DNA of 39,262 nt, taken from the IMG/VR virus record IMGVR_UViG_2513237200_000009. One strand, 5' to 3'. Positions 10,097 through 39,262 of this stretch are shown in pieces. How positions within the stretch are numbered: position 1 is the stretch's first letter; each line of letters starts with the position of its first letter. The notes beneath the pieces were generated by a model. It saw nothing but the letters and a program-made list of their open reading frames with translations, was not told the origin of the DNA and made no database searches. Position numbers and translations under genes: made by a program. Origin of the DNA: a virus (Duplodnaviria > Heunggongvirae > Uroviricota > Caudoviricetes).

Positions 10097-10144
10097 AAAT
10101 GACGGTATTTGTCTACTTGCAGGGATAATCAAAATAATGCTGAT

Positions 10145-10711
10145 TCAGGGGGATTCATTACTCTTATTTGCCGGAAATTTTCTATAAATTGTGGAAACAC
10201 CCACATCAAAAATCAGTGCAATACGCTGTCTTGATTCTCCGGCCTCGAGTAAGCGTCCAATCTGTGCCCACTGTTCGGTGGTCAACTTAGGACGGCGTCC
10301 ACCTACTCTGCCTTTGGCGCGAGCTGCAGCAAGCCCCGCCCTGGTACGTTCAACTATCAGTTCGCGTTCCATTTCAGCCAGGGCACCCATGACATGAAAA
10401 AAGAAACGGCCCATTGGGGTACTGGTATCAATACTGTCAGTCAGGCTTCGGAAATTCACACCTCGCTGGCGCAACTCTTCTATCAACGTAACAAGATGCC
10501 GCATACTGCGCCCCAACCTGTCCAGCTTCCAGACAACCAAAGTGTCACCTGCCGATAATGTCCTGAGCAGTTTTTTCAGTCCCGGTCTGTCGGACTTAGT
10601 GCCACTGATTTTGTCCTCAAAAATCCGCTCACATCCCGCGCAGTTCAGCGCATTACGTTGCAAATCGGTGTTCTGGTCATTTGTTGACACGCGTACATAG
10701 CCAATAAGCAT
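10145..10711 (-). CDS. Hin/Gin/Pin-family serine DNA invertase
   Basis: N-terminus MLIGYVRVSTNDQNTDLQ (catalytic Ser), resolvase domain plus C-terminal HTH (GRRPKLT...); about 188 aa. Confidence 0.9.
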   Translation of the reverse strand: MLIGYVRVSTNDQNTDLQRNALNCAGCERIFEDKISGTKSDRPGLKKLLRTLSAGDTLVVWKLDRLGRSMRHLVTLIEELRQRGVNFRSLTDSIDTSTPMGRFFFHVMGALAEMERELIVERTRAGLAAARAKGRVGGRRPKLTTEQWAQIGRLLEAGESRQRIALIFDVGVSTIYRKFPANKSNESP

Positions 10712-11818: not shown

Positions 11819-13251
<1,433 letters not shown>

Positions 13252-13262
13252 AAGTAACTGGA

Positions 13263-14654
13263 TTAAACAGGCGCACAATAAACCCTCCAGGAAAAAGCAT
13301 TTGATGATGGTCTGCCGTCGTACATCTGGCAGCGGGCATAAAAGCCGGTATTTGTTACCTGATCATCCACGATCATTGAAACGTGAACATTATTAGGTGT
13401 GCTCTCGTAATCCGTTCTTATTCTTTCCGCGATACTGATAAAACGTGAAAGTTTAGGCAGTGCAATTGGGTAAACAACTTTAGCCAGTCCATTATCATTA
13501 GATCCACCGGTTCCAAATACTTCTATTGCACCATCTGACCAGCGTATCCATGCACCATTGGCATTAGCTCCTCGCTGAATGACATATCTGGCTTCTCCCA
13601 AACCAAGGTATGCGAGAAGACCAGCTACATCCTTTCCACTCAAATTGGTAAGCGTATTGTCCAGCGGTTGTTTACCTGCCAGCGCATTAAGCATTGTCGT
13701 GGCAAAGTTCGGATCATTCCCCAGTGCCGCCGCCAGTTCGTTCAGTGTATCCAGTGCCGCAGGTGCAGAACCCACCATTGCTGCAATCGCTGATTTCACA
13801 AAAGCTGTAGTGGCAATCTGTGTATTGTTGACCGACTGTGCCGCAGTAGGTGCTGTTGGCGTTCCGGTGAGTGCCGGACTCGACAGCGGTGCTTTTAGTG
13901 CCAGCGCATTGTTAATGGTGGTACTGAATTTCGGGTCATTGTTAATGGCTGCGGCAATTTCTTTCAGTGTGTCCAGCGTGGCTGGCGCACCGTTAATCAG
14001 AGCAGTAATAGCGGCCTGAACAAACTCAGTGGTCGCAATCCGCGTGGTGTTATTTCCTGCTGCAGGCGTCGGCGCTTTTGGTTCTCCGGTAAATGTCGGA
14101 TTATGTTTCTGCGCATACTGGGTATGAGGATCTTGTGCGGCAATGTGGTTTCTCATCTGGTCATCCACATACAGCTTTAATTCCAGGACTTCATCATCCA
14201 CGTATTTACGGGTTGCCAGCACTACAGCAGGGTCGATTTTCAGGGTGATATTGTCCGTACTGCTGGTAATCAGCACCATGCGCACGGTCTGGGTGCGCCC
14301 GCTGCCTTCAGCCAGTTGCGGCTTATAGCTTTCCGGGCAGTTGCCCACGGCAATCAATGCCCCGGACTCATCAAACAGGCCCACTTCACGTATCCACCAA
14401 CCGCCCTCGTTTTCAGGGATCACCTGTTCAGCAATAATCTGGCTGCTGTTCTGCGGGTCGATATAAAGCATATTCAGCGCAGCCCGGCGTTTCTCATTTA
14501 CCAGTGCCGTCTGCTTTGCGTCCGGCGTTGGCAATACTCCGCCGCCATCGCCCACCGCCATATGGGTAATTTTTAGCGGCACACCGAGCGCGGCGGCGCT
14601 GGCAAGTTTCGCCGCGCCAATATCCGTCAGCAGGGTATAAAATTTTGTGCTCAT
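13263..14654 (-). CDS. H: tail fibre protein gpH (constant N-terminal part plus currently fused variable C-terminus)
   Basis: 463 aa, N-terminus MSTKFYTLLTDIGAAKLA...MAVGDGGG like P2 H; the hix-like site lies in codons ..YLGLGE. Confidence 0.85.
   Translation of the reverse strand: MSTKFYTLLTDIGAAKLASAAALGVPLKITHMAVGDGGGVLPTPDAKQTALVNEKRRAALNMLYIDPQNSSQIIAEQVIPENEGGWWIREVGLFDESGALIAVGNCPESYKPQLAEGSGRTQTVRMVLITSSTDNITLKIDPAVVLATRKYVDDEVLELKLYVDDQMRNHIAAQDPHTQYAQKHNPTFTGEPKAPTPAAGNNTTRIATTEFVQAAITALINGAPATLDTLKEIAAAINNDPKFSTTINNALALKAPLSSPALTGTPTAPTAAQSVNNTQIATTAFVKSAIAAMVGSAPAALDTLNELAAALGNDPNFATTMLNALAGKQPLDNTLTNLSGKDVAGLLAYLGLGEARYVIQRGANANGAWIRWSDGAIEVFGTGGSNDNGLAKVVYPIALPKLSRFISIAERIRTDYESTPNNVHVSMIVDDQVTNTGFYARCQMYDGRPSSNAFSWRVYCAPV
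13593..13618. repeat. hix/gix-like 26-bp inversion crossover site (right, inside H)
   Basis: plus strand TTCTCCCAAACC AA GGTATGCGAGAA, inverted relative to the left site. Confidence 0.55.
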
Positions 14655-16157: not shown

Positions 16158-16503
16158 TCTCTGCTCCTGTTGATACGGAAAGGGAAACAGGCACACCGTT
16201 ATTCCGCCGCCCGGTCAGCTCCACCACCATAGAACCGTCAAAGTTGCTGTTGATGGTGATGGAATCCAGCGTCAGCCGTGGCTCCCAGCGACTCAGCGCC
16301 ACATACACTGCCGACATGACCTGCAGGCGTAATGCCGGATTTTGTGGCTGATCTATTAAAACCGACAGGAGGGAACCATATTCCCGGCGGGCAATGCGGC
16401 TACCCTGCGGTGTCAGCAGAATGTCCCGCACCGACTGGCGCAGATGATCAATATCAGTAATGACTTTGCCGCTGGTATTGTTCATCCCGCTATAAAGCGT
16501 CAT
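16144..16503 (-). CDS. W: baseplate wedge protein gpW
   Basis: 119 aa, overlaps J start and V end. Confidence 0.8.
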   Translation of the reverse strand: MTLYSGMNNTSGKVITDIDHLRQSVRDILLTPQGSRIARREYGSLLSVLIDQPQNPALRLQVMSAVYVALSRWEPRLTLDSITINSNFDGSMVVELTGRRNNGVPVSLSVSTGAENGSD

Positions 16504-17078
16504 ACCGGGCCTCCGGTTGTATCGCCGCCTTTCAGGACGCCAGTATGCTGATGCGCATCAACCACAATCCCGTTAGAACTCATCGCACCGCCGCCCTGGG
16601 TAACGCCACCATTGATCACTACTTCGCTGTTAATTCGCGTGCGGTCAGCCTCCAGCACAAACTCACTGGTTTTCATGGTGATATTGTCAGCGGCCTCAAT
16701 GACCATTGATTTGATGCCCCTTACATACCAGCGCCCGGTGGCGGGTTCGTATTCAAACCAGCTACCGTCAGGATGTTCTGTCACGCAGGCGTCCGCCGAC
16801 GTCGACGGTGGTGCGAACTGATTCGAATAGACAGCGGGCAGCGCAAAGGCAGTCTCCAGATTACCGCCCAGACTCAGCAGCACCACCTGCTCACCTTCCG
16901 ATGGTCGCCACCATGTGCGGGCATTACCGGCACGCAGCGTCAGCCAACTGATCCAGTTAGTTTCAAGGTCGCCCGTTTTCACCCGGCAAAGCCAGTTCTC
17001 CCGGTCCACTTCGGTGACTACACCAGTGCGGATCAGATTGGTGATAAGGCGCATGATTTCAGTCAGTTGTGCGTTCAT
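16500..17078 (-). CDS. V: baseplate spike/hub protein gpV
   Basis: 192 aa, position as P2 V. Confidence 0.8.
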   Translation of the reverse strand: MNAQLTEIMRLITNLIRTGVVTEVDRENWLCRVKTGDLETNWISWLTLRAGNARTWWRPSEGEQVVLLSLGGNLETAFALPAVYSNQFAPPSTSADACVTEHPDGSWFEYEPATGRWYVRGIKSMVIEAADNITMKTSEFVLEADRTRINSEVVINGGVTQGGGAMSSNGIVVDAHQHTGVLKGGDTTGGPV

Positions 17079-17124
17079 AAGTTGATTTTATTTGTACTAT
17101 TTGTATATTTATATCCACTTTCCT

Positions 17125-17142
17125 TGTGACATTAACTACACA
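17125..17142 (-). promoter_or_regulatory. TGT-N12-ACA dyad, possible late promoter element for V
   Basis: TGTgacattaactacACA centred about 55 bp upstream of the V start codon; spacing is shorter than at FI and O. Confidence 0.3.
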
Positions 17143-17146
17143 AAAA

Positions 17147-18070
17147 ATGACAACTAACACCAATACCCCAGAAGCAGCTGAGCAAGATAATATTGTCCCC
17201 ATGGATGCAATGAATGATCCCATCAATCCCCCACCTACAAAGAAGGAGAGGGATGAATACAAAAAAAAACAGCAAGAAAGAATTGGCAAATACGTCGTTG
17301 GTGGAACAGATTTGGGTGGAAACACCATAAGTAAAATTTATTCACGTGGGGATGAATATGTCATTTATGAAGTAGCCAATCTTCCGCCTCATGAGTCTAT
17401 GCTCGTGTTCATAGACTCAATCATTGAGGAGGATGACAGTAAGATTGATAGATATCATGCTTCAAAAGAGCACTTTGATGAGTTTATTTCACATTGCTAC
17501 AAATACAACTGCTCTTCTATTTATAAAAAAAGAGCAGCAACAGTTATGTCAGCAACAATACTTGGAAAAAATGATATAAACAAAAATAACTTCGCCGCAA
17601 TAAATAGAGACATTAAAAACGATTATGAAAACACAATGCTTGGAAGGAATTTATATCAATCAGGAGCCATAACTTTAGCATTGATATTCATCATCCTTGC
17701 ATTGATAACATATTTGGCTAGAGATTCTAATTTCATAAAAGCTAATCACTTTATTCCAGTGGTGTTATACGCCGCTTCCTTTGCTTCCATCGGGGGGTTT
17801 ATTTCTGTATCCCTAAAAATAAAAAGCCTCCATACAGACAGAGAACTAAAAAAGAAAACTTATTTCTTCTATGGTGCGGAGAGAATACTCCTTTCAATGA
17901 TGGCTGGCGTACTTGTATACTTTATGCTCAAGGGGAATATTATCTTCGGGTTTATGAATAATAGTAGTGACATCTCATTCTCCATTTATGTGATTTGTGC
18001 GCTTTCTGGATTCAGTGAAACATTGATACCGAATACATTGAGAAACCTTGAAACCAAATCCGAAATTTAA
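17147..18070 (+). CDS. hypothetical AT-rich membrane protein (cargo gene between V and S)
   Basis: polar N-terminal region then about four hydrophobic helices (AITLALIFIILALITYLA, FIPVVLYAASFASIGGFISVSL, ILLSMMAGVLVYFML, ISFSIYVICALSGFSETLI); opposite strand to the late genes; start uncertain (GTG at 17126 or ATG at 17147). Confidence 0.6.
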   Translation: MTTNTNTPEAAEQDNIVPMDAMNDPINPPPTKKERDEYKKKQQERIGKYVVGGTDLGGNTISKIYSRGDEYVIYEVANLPPHESMLVFIDSIIEEDDSKIDRYHASKEHFDEFISHCYKYNCSSIYKKRAATVMSATILGKNDINKNNFAAINRDIKNDYENTMLGRNLYQSGAITLALIFIILALITYLARDSNFIKANHFIPVVLYAASFASIGGFISVSLKIKSLHTDRELKKKTYFFYGAERILLSMMAGVLVYFMLKGNIIFGFMNNSSDISFSIYVICALSGFSETLIPNTLRNLETKSEI

Positions 18071-18077
18071 ACGCATT

Positions 18078-18110
18078 AATTAGAGTGGCAATTATGTCAC
18101 TCTAATTTTT
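18078..18110 (+). terminator. rho-independent terminator of the cargo gene
   Basis: aattagagtg ... cactctaatt stem followed by ttttt, 8 bp after the stop codon. Confidence 0.55.
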
Positions 18111-18125
18111 ACTAGCTTCGAAGTG

Positions 18126-18572
18126 TTAATTTGTAACGACTCTAAATATCATATCTTGAATGAGCTTAATTACTTCAGCATTTATCCCTAACAGCCGTCT
18201 CTCTGCATAGTGTACTCGCGGACCATTACGACTGACGCGATCACGCAGGCCGTAGTGATGAACACGGGCAATGCGCTGTACCTTACCTTCAAACTGCACG
18301 CTGGCAGAATCGGCGCTGGCGGCAGTTTTCAGGTATTTTGTGGTGCGAAGCTTTGTAAACATCTGACGTTTGATGCGCCCCTTTTTACTGCGTGCTGTTA
18401 CCCTTCGCGGTTCATAGCTGCTGCCATCAGGATTACGCTGCATCCTGATGTTCTGCTGCTGTGTCCGGCGAAGTTCCTGCGCCAGCTGGCGCATCATGCT
18501 GCTTCTCGTGGCTGGTTCCAGATTCGCCAGCAAGGCACTCAGCCAGTCGTCCACCTTCTGCAGTTCAGCCAC
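18126..18572 (-). CDS. S: tail completion protein gpS
   Basis: 148 aa, P2 S position and size. Confidence 0.75.
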   Translation of the reverse strand: MAELQKVDDWLSALLANLEPATRSSMMRQLAQELRRTQQQNIRMQRNPDGSSYEPRRVTARSKKGRIKRQMFTKLRTTKYLKTAASADSASVQFEGKVQRIARVHHYGLRDRVSRNGPRVHYAERRLLGINAEVIKLIQDMIFRVVTN

Positions 18573-26882: not shown

Positions 26883-26912
26883 AACGCCTGCCTGAGCAGG
26901 CGTTCTTTCATT
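26883..26912. terminator. hairpin terminator between convergent Q and the DUF262 gene
   Basis: aacgcctgc ctga gcaggcgtt followed by ctttcattt. Confidence 0.55.
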
Positions 26913-28689
26913 TAAAACGTGTTGCAATATCTGCTGCTTCGATAACTGTTGCTTTTACGGTATTATCGCCAGCACGATAATAAATATCCCCATCATAACT
27001 AGAATAAGATGCTAGAAGTGGAATTGTAATAACTATAACTCCATAACCATAAAAGTCATTATAGTCAATCAAACTCACCACTTGTGATTTAAGAGGCTCA
27101 CTCAAAGCAGATTTTTTCAACTCATCGCAAAAACGTCTATAATATTCTTCCATTGATATGCCGAGTTTAATAGCTTCTCTTTTAACACCAACAACACTTC
27201 TCTCACCAACTACATGTGCATCTATATCATCAAGCTCTTTTACTCTACTTGTATCACTTGGTTTATCTGTTACACCAAGCAATAACTTACCAACTACACC
27301 GTTCTTGTTACCTTTACCGATGTTAGCAATAGCACAAATTGTGGAGAATATTTTCTCATGAATGCCATCATCAATAGTTCGCTCTCCGCCTAACATCAAC
27401 AAACCCTGTTTCAGTTCATAATTTGCAAGCTCTATTTCAGATCTTCGTAAAATATCCTCAATATCCACCGTATTGTGAGAATTATAGATATGACTGCTAT
27501 CGGCGCTATCAATAAAGTTATCTTTAATCAAGCCTATGATAGAATTAATATTCTTTCTTCTCTCTTCCCCACCAGTAGCAGATCTTTTAGTATCTAGTCG
27601 AGTGACTATATTATTAAGATTGTCTTTTACACCTTTATAATTATTAATCTTCTTATTTTCTTTAATGAGTAATTCATGAAAAGCAATAAATAACACAGCA
27701 AATATGGCTGGGAAAGCATTTGTAGTACGTTTAGTAAAGATTAAATCCCTGAGTTTAATTTCACCGTCACTATTACATACTTTTGTTATTTCCTGGATGC
27801 AGAATTTAAACTCTTCTGCAAATTTTCCTTCACCATAAACATTAATAGCAGAGCTAATACGACTATACTCTTCATCTTCATTATTATAAATCTGATCAAG
27901 CGCATCTTTGGAACGATCTATTAACTTACCTCCAACAATACAAGCTGCTATATCTGCAATGCATTGCTCATCCATACTGTCACGAAGGTCTGTTGAACGT
28001 AAGATCCCATGTTTTACCCAAAATACTTCTTCCGACTGAATTTGGTAACCATGTTTAGTTAGTGGCAAATCAATGCTAATAGACGGCATTTGCTCTAAAA
28101 GCAATATGTCGTCAGATACATCCCCCCTGATAGAACAGGCAATATCCCTAACCATATTTGAAAATTTATTTTGTATACCAGCCTGGCGCCTTTCTTGATC
28201 ACTAAGTCTATGCCCGTATGTATTAATTCTATCAAAAACATCATTTATTTCGTTCTCAGTCGCATTACGCATAATGGACATTGCAAGAGAATAATCCAAT
28301 AACTGAGTAACCTCACGCTGACTTAAAAGATTATCAGCTTTCACTGCAACAAACTTACCTTCATCCGCTCGATTTTTCGCTGTGGGAAAAGCGTCCAGAT
28401 TAAAACGTTTTCCATCAAGTGATTCATATCCTGTTTCGATGAAAGACATTATTGCATGTAATCTTTGTAGGCCATCAATTATTTCATATGTGCCAGGATC
28501 ATTTTCCCTTTCCGCGAGAAGAACTGCAGGAATTGGATATTTTTTTTGAATGGATTCAATTAATTTTTGTTTCTCTATTGCAGTCCAAACTAATTTTCGT
28601 TGATAACGTCTATTAACAAATATCTTACCTTCAGTAAACCATGAATAAATAGTTTGTATAGAAGTTGTTTGCGGTAATAGTTCAGCCAT
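26908..28689 (-). CDS. DUF262 (ParB-like nuclease / GmrSD N-terminal domain) protein, candidate defence gene
   Basis: 593 aa, AT-rich; N-terminal ...FVNRRYQRKLVWT...YEIIDGLQRLHAI... (DGxQR motif); C-terminal region unassigned. Confidence 0.75.
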   Translation of the reverse strand: MAELLPQTTSIQTIYSWFTEGKIFVNRRYQRKLVWTAIEKQKLIESIQKKYPIPAVLLAERENDPGTYEIIDGLQRLHAIMSFIETGYESLDGKRFNLDAFPTAKNRADEGKFVAVKADNLLSQREVTQLLDYSLAMSIMRNATENEINDVFDRINTYGHRLSDQERRQAGIQNKFSNMVRDIACSIRGDVSDDILLLEQMPSISIDLPLTKHGYQIQSEEVFWVKHGILRSTDLRDSMDEQCIADIAACIVGGKLIDRSKDALDQIYNNEDEEYSRISSAINVYGEGKFAEEFKFCIQEITKVCNSDGEIKLRDLIFTKRTTNAFPAIFAVLFIAFHELLIKENKKINNYKGVKDNLNNIVTRLDTKRSATGGEERRKNINSIIGLIKDNFIDSADSSHIYNSHNTVDIEDILRRSEIELANYELKQGLLMLGGERTIDDGIHEKIFSTICAIANIGKGNKNGVVGKLLLGVTDKPSDTSRVKELDDIDAHVVGERSVVGVKREAIKLGISMEEYYRRFCDELKKSALSEPLKSQVVSLIDYNDFYGYGVIVITIPLLASYSSYDGDIYYRAGDNTVKATVIEAADIATRFK

Positions 28690-29221: not shown

Positions 29222-29557
29222 ATGAACAATATTCCCCCTATACCACAGTTAGGAATTTATGTCTCAAAAATCGATCCCACCCTACGTATCACTGTAACCG
29301 ATGTTGATATTGTTGATGGTGAGGATGATTCTCCTGATGATGAATTGTTTTATTTAGTCCACTGGATCGAGGGGGAAGATGAAAGTGATATGACAGCAAT
29401 GGGATTTGAGCTAGACCCAGTAGAGTGGCAGGCTTTCGTTGAATCTGAGCAATTAGTGTTTGAGCGTGATCCGTACATGGATTCAATCCCCGAAAATTCA
29501 AACTTGGCAAAGATTCGGGATTTTCTCATGAAGACTAAACAGAATGATCATTCGTAA
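29222..29557 (+). CDS. small highly acidic hypothetical protein
   Basis: 111 aa with strong SD AAGGAG; about 26 Asp/Glu against about 7 Lys/Arg. Confidence 0.65.
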   Translation: MNNIPPIPQLGIYVSKIDPTLRITVTDVDIVDGEDDSPDDELFYLVHWIEGEDESDMTAMGFELDPVEWQAFVESEQLVFERDPYMDSIPENSNLAKIRDFLMKTKQNDHS

Positions 29558-35967: not shown

Positions 35968-36113
35968 GGTGCAACATTCCTTCTTTAATTCGGCTTGTGG
36001 CGAGCCGTTGTTTATCGTGATTAGTTGTGAAGGCTCCAAAAGAAGACTTCGAGGTCAACTTTAAGATCGCTTTTGGAATCTGTCAATGCAATTTAGATTG
36101 TTTTGGAGGACTC

Positions 36114-36677
36114 TTGAATTTCAATAGCGGCGGAAAGAAAGTGATTGAACGTTTGGTTGAGGCGTATGGTTTCACCACTCGTCAGGCCCTTTGCGACCAC
36201 TTAGGGGTTTCAAAGAGCACAATGGCAACCCGCTACATGCGTGACATTTTTCCAGCAGATTGGGTACTTCAATGCGTTGTAGAAACTGGTACTTCAATTG
36301 ATTGGCTGGTATCAGGGAAAGGTGAGTTAAAAACCACAGCAGTCAACTCTTTGGTAGACGTTGAAACTCGCGAACTAAAAAATGGAGAGGCTATTGCACT
36401 TGGAACGCACAAGATTGATCCAGTCTTTCTTCTCAATGAAATAAAATCTGCATTAGCGATAAAAATTAACCAACATGTTTACATTTGTGACCGAGAAGAC
36501 ACTACCATTTCTGATGGTCAATGGTTGGTGGATATAGAAGGAAAACTGAGTATTAAAAAAATCAATTTGATACCAGTCAAAAGAGCAATGGTATCTGGGG
36601 ATGGTTTTTCATTTGAATGTGATATTAGTGATATAAAACCTATAGCTAAGGTTCATACCGTAATCAGTGAGGCTTAA
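36114..36677 (+). CDS. cI: immunity repressor CI (186 CI family)
   Basis: ..ERLVEAYGF...QWLVDIEG...FECDISDIK parallels remembered 186 CI; probable TTG start after GGAGGA. Confidence 0.75.
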   Translation: MNFNSGGKKVIERLVEAYGFTTRQALCDHLGVSKSTMATRYMRDIFPADWVLQCVVETGTSIDWLVSGKGELKTTAVNSLVDVETRELKNGEAIALGTHKIDPVFLLNEIKSALAIKINQHVYICDREDTTISDGQWLVDIEGKLSIKKINLIPVKRAMVSGDGFSFECDISDIKPIAKVHTVISEA

Positions 36678-38129
36678 ATGGATATTGAGTGGAATTGGGA
36701 TCAAGATGACGAATTTCTTGGTGAAAAATTACCTGCAGATACATTGGACAGAAAAAAGTACGCAAAATATCTTTATGAAATCTGTGCTGCACGCGGTGCT
36801 AAATCCAATCTCGTAGTTAACATTAATGCGGAATGGGGGGCTGGAAAAACATATTTTACTAAACGCCTAGCCAAGACAATTTCCCACTACCATCCCACAA
36901 TATACATTGATGCTTGGAAAGAAGATTTTACTGAAGACCCATTGCTCACAGTATTTAGTGGAATTAAAGATCAATTATCTGGTCAATCTGATAGCTTTAC
37001 TGCTTTAATCAATTCAACAATTGAGAATGTCGGTCCTTTGCTAAAAACAGCGGCACCAGTTATTATTGATGGATTAATACAAAAGTTCACAGGGGTTGAC
37101 TCCTTTTCTAACCTAACTAAAGACTTATCATCTAAGCTAATAGAAATACACGCAGAAAAATCAACGAGAATAGAGACAGTAAGAAAAGGAATTAGTCGTT
37201 GGGTTGAATTCATTGGGCGAAAAGATGGAATAGATAAAGAGCTTCCATTATTTATAATAATTGATGAACTTGATAGATGTAGGCCCGATTTTTCCATTAG
37301 TCTTTTAGAAATCTCCAAGCATATTTTTAACATCCCTGGCGTAGTATTTATTATTGCCACTGACACCCAACAATTACAGCATTCAATAAAAGTTATATAT
37401 GGCACTAATTTTTCAGCAAGTCATTATCTAAGCAGGTTTTTTGACCGTCGATTCCTTCTCCCAACGCCAGAATACAAAGACTTACTATTAACAAAAACAG
37501 GTGAAAACATAATTTCGGAATTTAATTCTTTACGTGAAAAATTAATTCCATGCCCACAAGACATCACATCATTTGTTAAAAATTGTTCATCCATATTATT
37601 ATCCATAAAAATAAACATCAGAGACGCTGTAAAAATATACGAGAGGCTAATAGACATACTTATCACGTCAAATAAAACATTTGACCCCAATCTAATGTTG
37701 ATATTATCTGCATTTAATTTCAAAGATCATGATGTATATGCAAAAATAAAATCAAAAGAAAAGCTAATTCCTAGTCCTCTCAACACAGAAATAGATTTAT
37801 CATTTGATTTATCTTATGAAACTACACAAGTCAAGTACTTCCAAGCTAATGGTGGTGTTTATAGTAATACGTATAAACAAAAAGAAATTTCAACAAATGT
37901 TCTATTTTACATAGAGACTGCTTGGAACACCTTAACGATAGCAAGAACCGCACCTGTTGGCACGCGACCTTACAATACTCCAGAACTTTGGATGGAAGGA
38001 GAGTTGTCTCAGGAGGAATCATTAGCGAACTTTCTCAAAATGGGATACGCCAAAAGCCGGTACAATGAAAGTGAACTAAAAATTCATCAATATTTCGATT
38101 TAATTGAACTGAGCACAACATTTGATTGA
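36678..38129 (+). CDS. KAP-family P-loop NTPase (PifA-like), candidate anti-phage/exclusion protein
   Basis: 483 aa, AT-rich; Walker A AEWGAGKT with the KAP-typical Trp, Walker B IIIDELDRC; ATG immediately follows the cI stop (TAAATG). Confidence 0.8.
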   Translation: MDIEWNWDQDDEFLGEKLPADTLDRKKYAKYLYEICAARGAKSNLVVNINAEWGAGKTYFTKRLAKTISHYHPTIYIDAWKEDFTEDPLLTVFSGIKDQLSGQSDSFTALINSTIENVGPLLKTAAPVIIDGLIQKFTGVDSFSNLTKDLSSKLIEIHAEKSTRIETVRKGISRWVEFIGRKDGIDKELPLFIIIDELDRCRPDFSISLLEISKHIFNIPGVVFIIATDTQQLQHSIKVIYGTNFSASHYLSRFFDRRFLLPTPEYKDLLLTKTGENIISEFNSLREKLIPCPQDITSFVKNCSSILLSIKINIRDAVKIYERLIDILITSNKTFDPNLMLILSAFNFKDHDVYAKIKSKEKLIPSPLNTEIDLSFDLSYETTQVKYFQANGGVYSNTYKQKEISTNVLFYIETAWNTLTIARTAPVGTRPYNTPELWMEGELSQEESLANFLKMGYAKSRYNESELKIHQYFDLIELSTTFD

Positions 38130-38209: not shown

Positions 38210-39262
38210 ATGGCAGTACGAAAACTCGACACAGGTAAATGGATATGCGAATGCTACCCCGCCGGGCGCAGCGGACGGCGTGTGCGTAAGCAATTCGCCA
38301 CCAAAGGTGAAGCGTTAGCATTTGAACGGCACATAATGGAGGAAACTGAAGCTAAGCCCTGGCTGGGTGAATCGGTAGATCGCCGAACTCTGAAAGACGT
38401 CGTTGAACTCTGGTTCAAACTGCACGGCAAATCTCTGACCGCTGGCGAGCATGTTTACGACAAGCTGATCCTGATGGTCGAAGCTCTCGGAAATCCCCTC
38501 GCCACCGATTTAACATCCAAAATGTTCGCGCACTATCGCGATAAACGCCTGACAGGAGAGATCTACTTCAGCGAGAAATGGAAGAAAGGAGCAAGCCCGG
38601 TCACTATTAATCTGGAGCAAAGCTATCTAAGTAGTGTTTTTAGCGAACTATCCCGCCTGGGCGAATGGTCGTATCCGAACCCACTGGAGAACATGCGAAA
38701 ATTCACCATCGCAGAAAAAGAGATGGCATGGCTTACCCATGAGCAGATTGTTGAATTGCTGGCTGATTGCAAACGTCAGGACCCAATTCTGGCACTGGTA
38801 GTTAAGATATGCTTAAGCACAGGCGCACGCTGGCGTGAAGCCGTAAATCTTACCCGCTCGCAGGTGACCAAATACCGAATTACCTTTGTAAGAACGAAGG
38901 GGAAGAAAAACAGAAGCATCCCTATCAGTAAAGAGCTTTACGAAGAGATCATGGCGCTTGATGGGTTCAATTTCTTCACAGACTGCTATTTTCAATTTTT
39001 ATCCGTGATGGAAAAAACGTCTATCGTGCTGCCTCGCGGTCAACTGACACACGTTCTGCGCCATACGTTTGCGGCGCACTTCATGATGTCGGGTGGAAAC
39101 ATCCTGGCCTTACAAAAAATTCTCGGACACCACGATATAAAAATGACTATGCGTTATGCGCATCTGGCACCGGATCATCTGGAAACGGCGCTCCGTTTCA
39201 ATCCTCTGGCAACATTGCCAAGTGGCGACAAAGTGGCGGCAGCGGTTGGCATTACCCCGTAA
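38210..39262 (+). CDS. int: tyrosine integrase (186/P2-type)
   Basis: 350 aa; MAVRKLDTGKWICECYP... and C-terminal ...LTHVLRHTFAAHFMMSGGNILALQKILGHHDIKMTMRYAHL catalytic region. Confidence 0.9.
   Translation: MAVRKLDTGKWICECYPAGRSGRRVRKQFATKGEALAFERHIMEETEAKPWLGESVDRRTLKDVVELWFKLHGKSLTAGEHVYDKLILMVEALGNPLATDLTSKMFAHYRDKRLTGEIYFSEKWKKGASPVTINLEQSYLSSVFSELSRLGEWSYPNPLENMRKFTIAEKEMAWLTHEQIVELLADCKRQDPILALVVKICLSTGARWREAVNLTRSQVTKYRITFVRTKGKKNRSIPISKELYEEIMALDGFNFFTDCYFQFLSVMEKTSIVLPRGQLTHVLRHTFAAHFMMSGGNILALQKILGHHDIKMTMRYAHLAPDHLETALRFNPLATLPSGDKVAAAVGITP

Follow-up and report, generated by a model that had tools for sequence, protein, structure and literature searches.

The stretch of DNA analysed here (hereafter the window) comprises the 39,262 nucleotides of virus record IMGVR_UViG_2513237200_000009 and carries a single AT-rich gene, referred to below as the cargo gene, between the late genes V and S and on the strand opposite to them. 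The window represents a P2-family myovirus prophage with a 186-type cI/cII/fil control region and integrase, whose genes are arranged in the order ogr-D-U-T-E-FII-FI ... H-I-J-W-V / S-R-lysis-X-L-M-N-O / P-Q. The cargo region is 100% identical to a prophage of the Escherichia coli W chromosome (NC_017664), next to ybjL. An original prediction, made from the letters of the window, had described the gene as encoding a membrane-anchored effector, possibly active in abortive infection or superinfection exclusion. The data presented below are best explained by horizontal acquisition of the gene as a single-gene accessory cassette (a “moron”), which occupies the orf30 slot of the P2/186-like prophage of E. 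coli W.

The cargo gene and its control signals

The AT-rich open reading frame (ORF) that had been predicted on the opposite strand between V and S is present and encodes 307 amino acids, or 314 if translation were to begin at a GTG codon at position 17126; the ATG codon at position 17147 is favored by the RefSeq annotation and by the N-termini of homologues. In RefSeq, the product is entered as a “hypothetical protein” (WP_001350048.1), and no mention of WP_001350048 was found in the literature. With a GC content of 36.0%, as opposed to 56.3% for gpV and 51.7% for gpS, the gene constitutes one of three AT-rich troughs in the window. At this composition, a run of 307 stop-free codons would arise by chance with a probability of about 2e-10. 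Comparison with a 92%-identical allele of another P2-like prophage revealed 100 synonymous and 28 non-synonymous differences and a ratio of non-synonymous to synonymous substitution rates (dN/dS) of 0.044 at a dS of 0.89, so that purifying selection is tighter on the cargo gene than on V (dN/dS 0.11) or W (0.09). A chance ORF is ruled out by the ORF length together with the dN/dS value. These data show that the cargo gene is real, selected, foreign in composition and single.

Upstream of the gene, a candidate sigma-70-like promoter was identified (Table 1), whose hexamers are found at an equal offset from the V start codon in three other cassettes that carry members of the same protein family (E. 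coli L007, Pantoea L010 and Citrobacter L024). The hexamers are shared despite the fact that the cargo proteins of these family-bearing cassettes are only 58-63% identical, and nothing comparable was detected in the empty V/S junction. Located downstream of the candidate promoter is a dyad, presumed to be the Ogr/Delta-type activator site of the V-operon late promoter PV, which is centered 55.5 nt away from the V start codon (first base) and includes the alternative GTG start of the cargo gene. The dyad is situated 46-49 nt from the V ATG in 12 of 12 site variants, the empty one included, and is their sole constant element. In P2, the annotated activator site shows equal spacing to the V transcription start. 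The -35 hexamer of the candidate cargo promoter overlaps with the presumed PV -10 hexamer on the other strand, and a transcript from the putative cargo promoter would pass through the late-activator dyad.

The clean terminator that had been noted after the ORF was identified as a hairpin with a 13-bp stem and a U-run, beginning 7 nt past the stop codon. Its fold has a free energy of -16.5 kcal/mol (z = -3.76), and none of 200 shuffled sequences was as stable; a simple terminator scan misses the hairpin, as it calls the core stem with a loop of more than 8 nt. Homologue cassettes carry unrelated hairpin and T-run sequences at the equivalent place, and an Rfam search of positions 16900-18300 identified no RNA family. 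The cargo and gpS genes converge on the hairpin, which may therefore terminate the late R-S transcript as well, as in P2. The sequence signals are thus in agreement with the predicted independent transcription unit on the opposite strand: a terminator is accompanied by a conserved sigma-70-like promoter in all four family cassettes.

Table 1. Coordinates, strands and supporting evidence of the features at the V/S junction of the window.
Feature	Position	Strand	Evidence
gpV, baseplate spike, left conserved flank	16500..17078	-	PHROG matches, RefSeq annotation
Whole exchangeable AT-rich cassette	17079..18125	.	Comparison of 11 junction variants, composition, empty sites
Candidate sigma-70-like cargo promoter: -35 TTGATT (17082-17087), 16-nt spacer, -10 TATATT (17104-17109)	17082..17109	+	Scan, 9/12 matches
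Candidate -10 hexamer TAAAAT of late promoter PV	17085..17090	-	Sequence and P2 geometry, activator site centered at -55
TGT-N12-ACA dyad, presumed Ogr/Delta-type late-activator site of PV	17125..17142	.	Read from sequence
Cargo coding sequence, 307 amino acids and stop, ATG start	17147..18070	+	ORF list, RefSeq, homologue N-termini
Intrinsic terminator of cargo gene: 13-bp stem (18078-18107), 4-nt loop, U-run to 18110	18078..18110	+	RNA folding
gpS, tail completion / virion morphogenesis, right conserved flank	18126..18572	-	phrog_26, RefSeq annotation

The V/S junction as a variable site

The original prediction started from the premise that S is directly followed by V in P2-type genomes. 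This premise is partly wrong, as P2 holds orf30 exactly at this position. The accompanying suggestion that the V-S junction might be a variable cargo site was borne out by empty and otherwise-filled junctions in relatives. A megablast search with V, cargo and S against 5,426 complete E. coli genomes recovered the V/S backbone in 1,050 of them and the full cassette in 10, all of which are 100% identical and several of which are W-derived. Two RefSeq entries labeled “DH5alpha” (NZ_CP026085.1 and NZ_CM135829.1, about 4.83 Mb each) also carry the cassette at 100% identity, as E. coli W does; K-12 derivatives are not expected to carry it, and these labels may be wrong. In an evenly spaced sample of the megablast ranking that comprised 49 matches with two flanks, an empty 68-bp V/S junction was found in 30, while the remainder contained one gene each. 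Klebsiella phage KP12 exhibits the empty 68-bp junction, too.

The genes that fill the slot in place of the cargo gene encode TIR, SIR2, FRG, DUF2971, DUF6216 (including BL21 and E. coli C) and DUF5677 proteins as well as unnamed proteins. They occur in either orientation, and all of those compared (E. coli L018-L023) have a GC content of 32-37%. Four of these slot cargos matched PADLOC profiles of defense or candidate defense proteins, namely SIR2 to LmuA/ThsA, FRG to PDC-S15, DUF2971 to PDC-S31 and TIR to PDC-S66. A BLASTP comparison with the Cartapus cargo showed no similarity.

Two diverged alleles illustrate the relation between cargo and backbone. In L007, an identity of 97% in V (V dS 0.18) contrasts with one of only 58% in the cargo, whose dS is saturated; in L048, the values are 85% for V and 92% for the cargo. 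As the identities of V and cargo diverge in opposite directions in these two loci, the history of the cargo is uncoupled from that of the backbone. The L007 allele is absent from complete RefSeq E. coli genomes.

The limits of the variable segment were defined by comparing 11 junctions, i.e., the window, three with diverged family members, six with other cargos and one empty; a twelfth was added for the dyad check mentioned above. On the V side, the segment begins at the very first base adjoining the start codon; on the S side, it ends at the last base ahead of the stop codon. The stretch of 45 nt that separates the dyad from the V ATG likewise varies by cargo type, so that exchange most likely proceeds by homologous recombination inside the V and S genes. 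Entry of the cargo by site-specific insertion is rejected, as the variable segment spans V start to S stop and includes the promoter spacer.

The orf30 region has been listed, together with the TO (tin/old) and Z/fun regions, as one of three P2-like loci for horizontally acquired genes (PMC3091744), and phage R18C carries yet another ORF at the orf30 site (PMC6823313). The site is therefore already known as a cargo slot, and the undescribed part is this particular cargo.

Predicted architecture of the cargo protein

A polar N-terminal part followed by about four C-terminal transmembrane (TM) helices had been proposed for the cargo protein, and this layout was confirmed at the level of prediction by hydropathy, AlphaFold2 helices and loop charges. 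Four Kyte-Doolittle hydrophobic segments are located at residues ~172-192, 202-222, 247-266 and 277-294, with peaks of 1.6-2.5, and all four are helical in the full AlphaFold2 model (mean predicted local distance difference test score, pLDDT, 82.9). The loop between TM2 and TM3 contains seven lysine or arginine residues, as opposed to one and none in the other two inter-TM loops, so that the N-terminal domain (N-domain) and the C-terminal tail are predicted to be cytoplasmic. Hydropathy, helices and positive-inside charges therefore all predict a 4-TM integral inner-membrane protein with both termini inside (N-in/C-in).

In the model, a disordered N-terminal tail (residues 1-25) precedes an alpha/beta N-domain (~28-150) that is predicted to be cytoplasmic, followed by a long helix continuing into TM1, the four TM segments and a C-terminal amphipathic helix bearing the family motif GFSETLIPNxLRNLE. 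When modeled alone, the N-domain reached a pLDDT of 93.6 and consists of a helix, a three-stranded meander and a helical bundle, the last helix of which continues into TM1.

A large family of solitary genes

The original prediction had not recognized the family of the protein, and no match to a described family was found in Pfam, PHROG, PADLOC, NCBIfam, the Protein Data Bank (PDB) or BFVD. Searches with the query against Pfam (E ≤ 1), PHROG, PADLOC and NCBIfam returned no family match; the membrane model TIGR04086 was hit by the query below threshold only (E 0.036, 14 bits versus a cutoff of 30). In PADLOC-DB v2.0.0, 0 families matched the query at E ≤ 1, and 41 family members gave scattered single matches to unrelated models (E ≥ 2e-4). 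Likewise, the Pfam matches of the 41 aligned members amount to scattered noise only, and S_4TM, SLATT and RexB are absent among the 25 listed of the 32 Pfam families that these members matched at E ≤ 0.1. A sequence-profile search of the PDB with the query gave no match, and a Foldseek search of the model against BFVD returned nothing at E < 0.1.

Relatives of the cargo protein are nevertheless numerous. A word-indexed search identified 42 clusters, all annotated as “hypothetical,” in Escherichia, Pantoea, Bowmanella, Burkholderia, Vibrio cholerae, Rugosibacter, Flavobacterium and Hymenobacter. When 1.84 billion representatives were searched exhaustively with a profile, 2,679 proteins were obtained at E ≤ 1e-3, each representing a cluster at 50% identity, and 1,048 at E ≤ 1e-10. 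Nearly all of these relatives are 245-320 amino acids long and show the same architecture. The family occurs in Proteobacteria (Gammaproteobacteria and Betaproteobacteria), Campylobacterota and Bacteroidota, and a genome scan added Citrobacter, Pseudoalteromonas, Aquimarina, Ohtaekwangia, Sulfurimonas, Methylobacter and others.

In 117 diverse representatives (17-62% identical), P295 is invariant, and Y74, G216, S220, R246 and G288-F289-S290-E291 are each conserved in at least 90%. These sites map to one strand of the N-domain, which carries an “EYxIYE” motif, and to the cytoplasmic ends of TM2, TM3 and TM4. Overall, conservation peaks in TM2-TM4 and the C-terminal helix and is weaker in the N-domain; the initial ~27 residues are disordered and show no conservation. 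Rare metagenomic fusions were also detected, in which N-terminal extensions of ~480 residues (P0065, 763 amino acids) and ~160 residues (P0067, 442 amino acids) are present. Neither extension showed a Pfam or PDB match; they could represent alternative sensor or enzymatic domains.

Genomic context of relatives

Other P2-like prophages of Enterobacterales carry diverged relatives in their V/S slot, again on the opposite strand. Outside this setting, the gene was found in a variety of contexts. The V. cholerae member (L014:1100-2282) is a one-gene superintegron cassette located between V. cholerae repeats (VCR), on a contig with five VCR copies, and this one-gene cassette indicates that the gene is a self-contained mobile unit. 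A Burkholderia relative is part of an integrative island with two restriction-modification (R-M) systems and two integrases, another relative resides on an integrated conjugative or plasmid-like element, and one was found in a prophage accessory region containing lambda Ea47. ParDE adjoins one relative, while MazEF, an OLD-like AAA_15/21 ATPase and other toxin-antitoxin-like pairs are encoded near another. In a phage-like region, a HEPN_AbiU2 gene is located directly downstream of one relative, and a KAP NTPase gene lies beside one. Type III R-M systems were found near relatives in two loci, and a YobI-like NTPase was encountered as well.

Neighbors related to defense, toxin-antitoxin (TA) systems or mobile elements are present in most, though not all, annotated contexts outside P2-like prophages, in a small sample without a background rate. 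An all-against-all BLAST of the neighboring genes in 22 loci identified no conserved partner gene. Together, these searches show that the family is large and unnamed, is carried on mobile elements as a solitary gene and is absent from Pfam, PADLOC, PHROG and NCBIfam.

The copy of Methylomicrobium lacus (L041:9187-11473) is split into pieces of 161 and 76 amino acids, which are separated by about 1.6 kb containing a transposase-like ORF. Its neighbors include an IS66-family transposase gene, and the copy has likely been inactivated by insertion.

Other accessory regions of the prophage

Accessory genes are found in three separate hotspots of the same prophage. The second AT-rich islet (33-40% GC) is located between gpA and the portal gene, i.e., at the classical old/tin hotspot. 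A GmrSD_N-domain protein of 592 amino acids that resembles type IV restriction enzymes is encoded here at 26908-28689 (-), together with a 111-amino acid ORF without a Pfam match at 29222-29557 (+). The third islet contains a gene for a 483-amino acid KAP-family P-loop NTPase at 36678-38129 (+), wedged between the genes for the cI repressor (36027-36677) and the integrase (38210-39262).

Among the tail-fiber and assembly genes, a DNA invertase gene of the recombinase family (~10144-10710) and an IS3-family transposase gene (~12066-13243) were located in the neighborhood of gpH (13263-14654), at positions transferred from the E. coli W annotation (L001, offset 2911). The insertion among these genes suggests that the prophage may be defective for tail-fiber assembly.

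Proposed role and alternative explanations

For the function of the cargo gene, we favor an anti-phage protein of the abortive-infection or membrane-effector type, with a probability of about 0.45, i.e., a little below even odds. We infer this function from association, and not from homology, a fold match or an experiment: other cargos of the slot match defense-type profiles, the two further hotspots of the prophage hold GmrSD and KAP NTPase genes, and relatives are found near R-M, TA, AbiU2, KAP or OLD-like genes or in an integron cassette. Hotspots of P2-like elements have been described as reservoirs of defense genes (PMC9122126, PMC9519451, PMC13586616).

In this model, the cargo gene would be transcribed in the lysogen, where Ogr is absent, from its own sigma-70 promoter up to its own terminator, and its expression would not depend on the late operons, which require Ogr. 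During lytic growth of the prophage itself, activation of PV would be expected to compete with cargo expression, as the two promoters overlap back to back and the cargo transcript crosses the dyad. The product would be an N-in/C-in inner-membrane protein in which an uninterrupted helix links the cytoplasmic N-domain to a membrane bundle of four helices. Within the bundle, conservation is strongest at G216 and S220 (TM2), at R246 where TM3 begins, and at G288-F-S-E291 with P295 where TM4 ends; all of these residues are predicted to be situated at the cytoplasmic face. As an autonomous anti-phage protein guarding the lysogen, it might sense an infection cue through its variable cytoplasmic domain, while the conserved membrane module would act on the membrane in an abortive-infection manner, for example by depolarizing or permeabilizing it.

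Several observations weigh against an anti-phage role. No sequence or fold likeness to a known defense, abortive-infection, exclusion, holin or channel protein was detected in the profile, PDB and BFVD searches, and a tblastn search of 50,697 GenBank phage records and 72,556 PLSDB plasmids returned no relative. The cargo is rare: among 5,426 complete E. coli genomes, it was found in 10, several of which derive from strain W. Several relatives are located among housekeeping genes (glycine cleavage, SAM synthetase, isocitrate dehydrogenase) or unannotated genes, and the association with defense neighbors is suggestive and not a statistic, given the small sample and the lack of a background control. 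The conserved glycine, serine, arginine, glutamate and proline positions could simply serve helix packing. The membrane topology is a prediction, as are the use of the promoter and its interference with PV, and the positional analogue in P2, orf30, has no known phenotype.

Some of these points are equally the basis of an alternative explanation, in which the gene serves conversion or fitness unrelated to phages, such as membrane stress, transport or signaling, or is a neutral passenger kept by linkage. Such a role, which we consider unlikely, would fit the lack of defense homology in PADLOC for the query and the 41 members, the relatives found among housekeeping or unannotated genes, and the nonessential nature of P2 orf30, which has no known role. 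The description of the P2 tail-region hotspot as mixed-purpose (bioRxiv 10.1101/2024.10.15.618418) counts in its favor as well. However, the strong purifying selection speaks against a neutral passenger. Further points against this alternative are the patchy, solitary spread on mobile elements, the repeated proximity to R-M, TA and abortive-infection genes, and the defense-type genes in the same slot and the same prophage, all of which are typical of defense cargo.

The exclusion proteins P22 SieA, T4 Imm and HK97 gp15 are small membrane proteins. By analogy, the cargo protein could be expressed in the lysogen and block DNA entry via an inner-membrane entry factor without cell death. Its predicted inner-membrane location and its position in a prophage accessory slot are compatible with superinfection exclusion, and two further slot cargos, P2 Orf30 and DUF6216, also exhibit multiple TM-like segments. 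However, the family spans Gammaproteobacteria, Betaproteobacteria, Campylobacterota and Bacteroidota and occurs in an integron cassette, in integrative elements and in plain chromosomal settings; this broad spread outside phages fits a generic mechanism better than the blocking of one phage's entry route. In addition, a conserved cytoplasmic domain of 140 residues is unexpected for a simple entry blocker, and no likeness to a known exclusion protein emerged from the Pfam, PHROG, PADLOC and NCBIfam searches. Exclusion is regarded as unlikely.

A still smaller chance is assigned to an addiction or toxin-like module, in which a membrane-toxic protein would stabilize the prophage or element and any anti-phage effect would be secondary. 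The architecture resembles that of membrane effectors, and relatives adjoin TA pairs or reside in a superintegron, a kind of element in which TA cassettes are frequent. However, a conserved antitoxin-like partner was not found in the 22 loci, and the gene is carried intact and, as far as annotations go, apparently unregulated in 10 E. coli genomes, which makes this explanation very unlikely. Finally, a part in the prophage's own lytic program, as a holin, antiholin, lysis regulator or tail-assembly factor, is suggested by the location in the late morphogenesis region near the lysis genes, but is nearly excluded because the gene is absent in ~60% of close relatives, replaced by unrelated genes in others, encoded on the other strand as a unit with separate promoter and terminator signals, found outside phages, and without a match to a holin, lysis or structural family in Pfam or PHROG.

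If the preferred anti-phage role is correct, the family would represent a compact (0.9 kb), partner-free membrane defense family with ~2,700 clusters at 50% identity in at least two phyla. The S/V (“orf30”) junction, which also holds TIR, SIR2, FRG and DUF2971 genes, would then constitute a further, strictly single-gene defense hotspot that has possibly been overlooked. The overlapping promoters suggest a simple way for the prophage to escape harm from its own cargo during induction. The most far-reaching version of this proposal combines a new, widespread family of autonomous one-gene sensor-effector defense proteins, a cytoplasmic domain of new fold, and an S/V junction that is a dedicated single-gene defense slot whose promoter is interlocked with the Ogr-dependent late promoter, being on in the lysogen and down in the lytic phase; we regard this combination as doubtful. 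If, on the other hand, the protein is not anti-phage, the gene would remain an ordinary moron without an assigned function, located at a variable site that is already known.

Comparison with known systems

Small helical membrane modules with a cytoplasmic part that are carried on mobile elements are also found among membrane effectors of abortive infection, such as lambda RexB, the S-4TM, SLATT and PycTM effectors of cyclic oligonucleotide-based antiphage signaling systems (CBASS) and pyrimidine cyclase systems for antiphage resistance (Pycsar), and KwaA of Kiwa, and the cargo protein may be analogous to them in this respect. Unlike RexB and the CBASS and Pycsar TM effectors, the cargo family has no partner gene, as no conserved neighbor was found in 22 loci. 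Neither a Pfam match nor a conserved adjacent gene for a signal-generating or sensor partner was found that would assign the protein to CBASS, Pycsar or RexB, and PADLOC-DB v2.0.0 does not place it in a known or candidate anti-phage family.

P22 SieA and HK97 gp15 are phage-encoded inner-membrane proteins of lysogens that are directed against incoming phages, while T4 Imm acts during infection. In the profile searches, the cargo protein showed no similarity to SieA, Imm or HK97 gp15, and its family differs from them in its large conserved cytoplasmic domain and its broad spread outside phages. It also stands apart from holin, lysis and structural proteins, as it belongs to no such PHROG or Pfam family, is absent from most relatives of the prophage and has no tblastn relative in phage records.

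With the defense hotspots of P2-like elements (old/tin between gpA and gpQ, and the Z/fun tail region), the S/V slot shares AT-rich, rapidly exchanged cargo that is located between core genes and uncoupled from the backbone. The same prophage carries GmrSD in its A-Q locus and a KAP NTPase beside cI and int. In the instances seen, the S/V slot differs from these hotspots in holding a single gene. The S/V junction has not been singled out as a defense hotspot in PMC9122126, PMC9519451, PMC13586616 or bioRxiv 10.1101/2024.10.15.618418, in which the A-Q and Z/fun/tail loci are discussed. The 2026 survey among these used only the Q-L operon, gpA and integrase as landmarks and pooled everything “downstream of GpL” (PMC13586616). 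A functionally tested cargo of the S/V slot was not found in the literature.

The closest positional counterpart is P2 orf30 (NP_046770.1), for which likewise no functional study was found in the literature. It fills the same S/V slot as a single nonessential gene that runs against the late genes; it is likewise AT-rich, with a GC content of 34%, is separated from S by a terminator, has the PV activator site just upstream of its start and encodes a predicted multi-TM protein. However, its product shows no sequence similarity to the cargo protein (best BLASTP E = 7.1 over 43 residues) and differs in layout, comprising 261 amino acids with three dispersed TM-like segments, whereas the 307-amino acid cargo protein combines a soluble N-domain with a C-terminal 4-TM bundle. 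Membership in the P2 Orf30 family is thus not supported by sequence; the two have no more than position and orientation in common. P2 Orf30 (L004:940-1725) and the DUF6216 cargo (L022:883-1689) resemble each other in the layout of three TM-like segments, gave a weak collinear BLASTP match (E 0.084) and may be distant relatives. DUF6216 is reportedly mentioned in a 2026 bioRxiv preprint on H-NS silencing of immunity genes. The cargo gene, being foreign, flanked by gpS and gpV and missing or exchanged in close relatives, belongs to the positional class of orf30-region cargos, and it represents an uncharacterized cargo family in a known variable locus.

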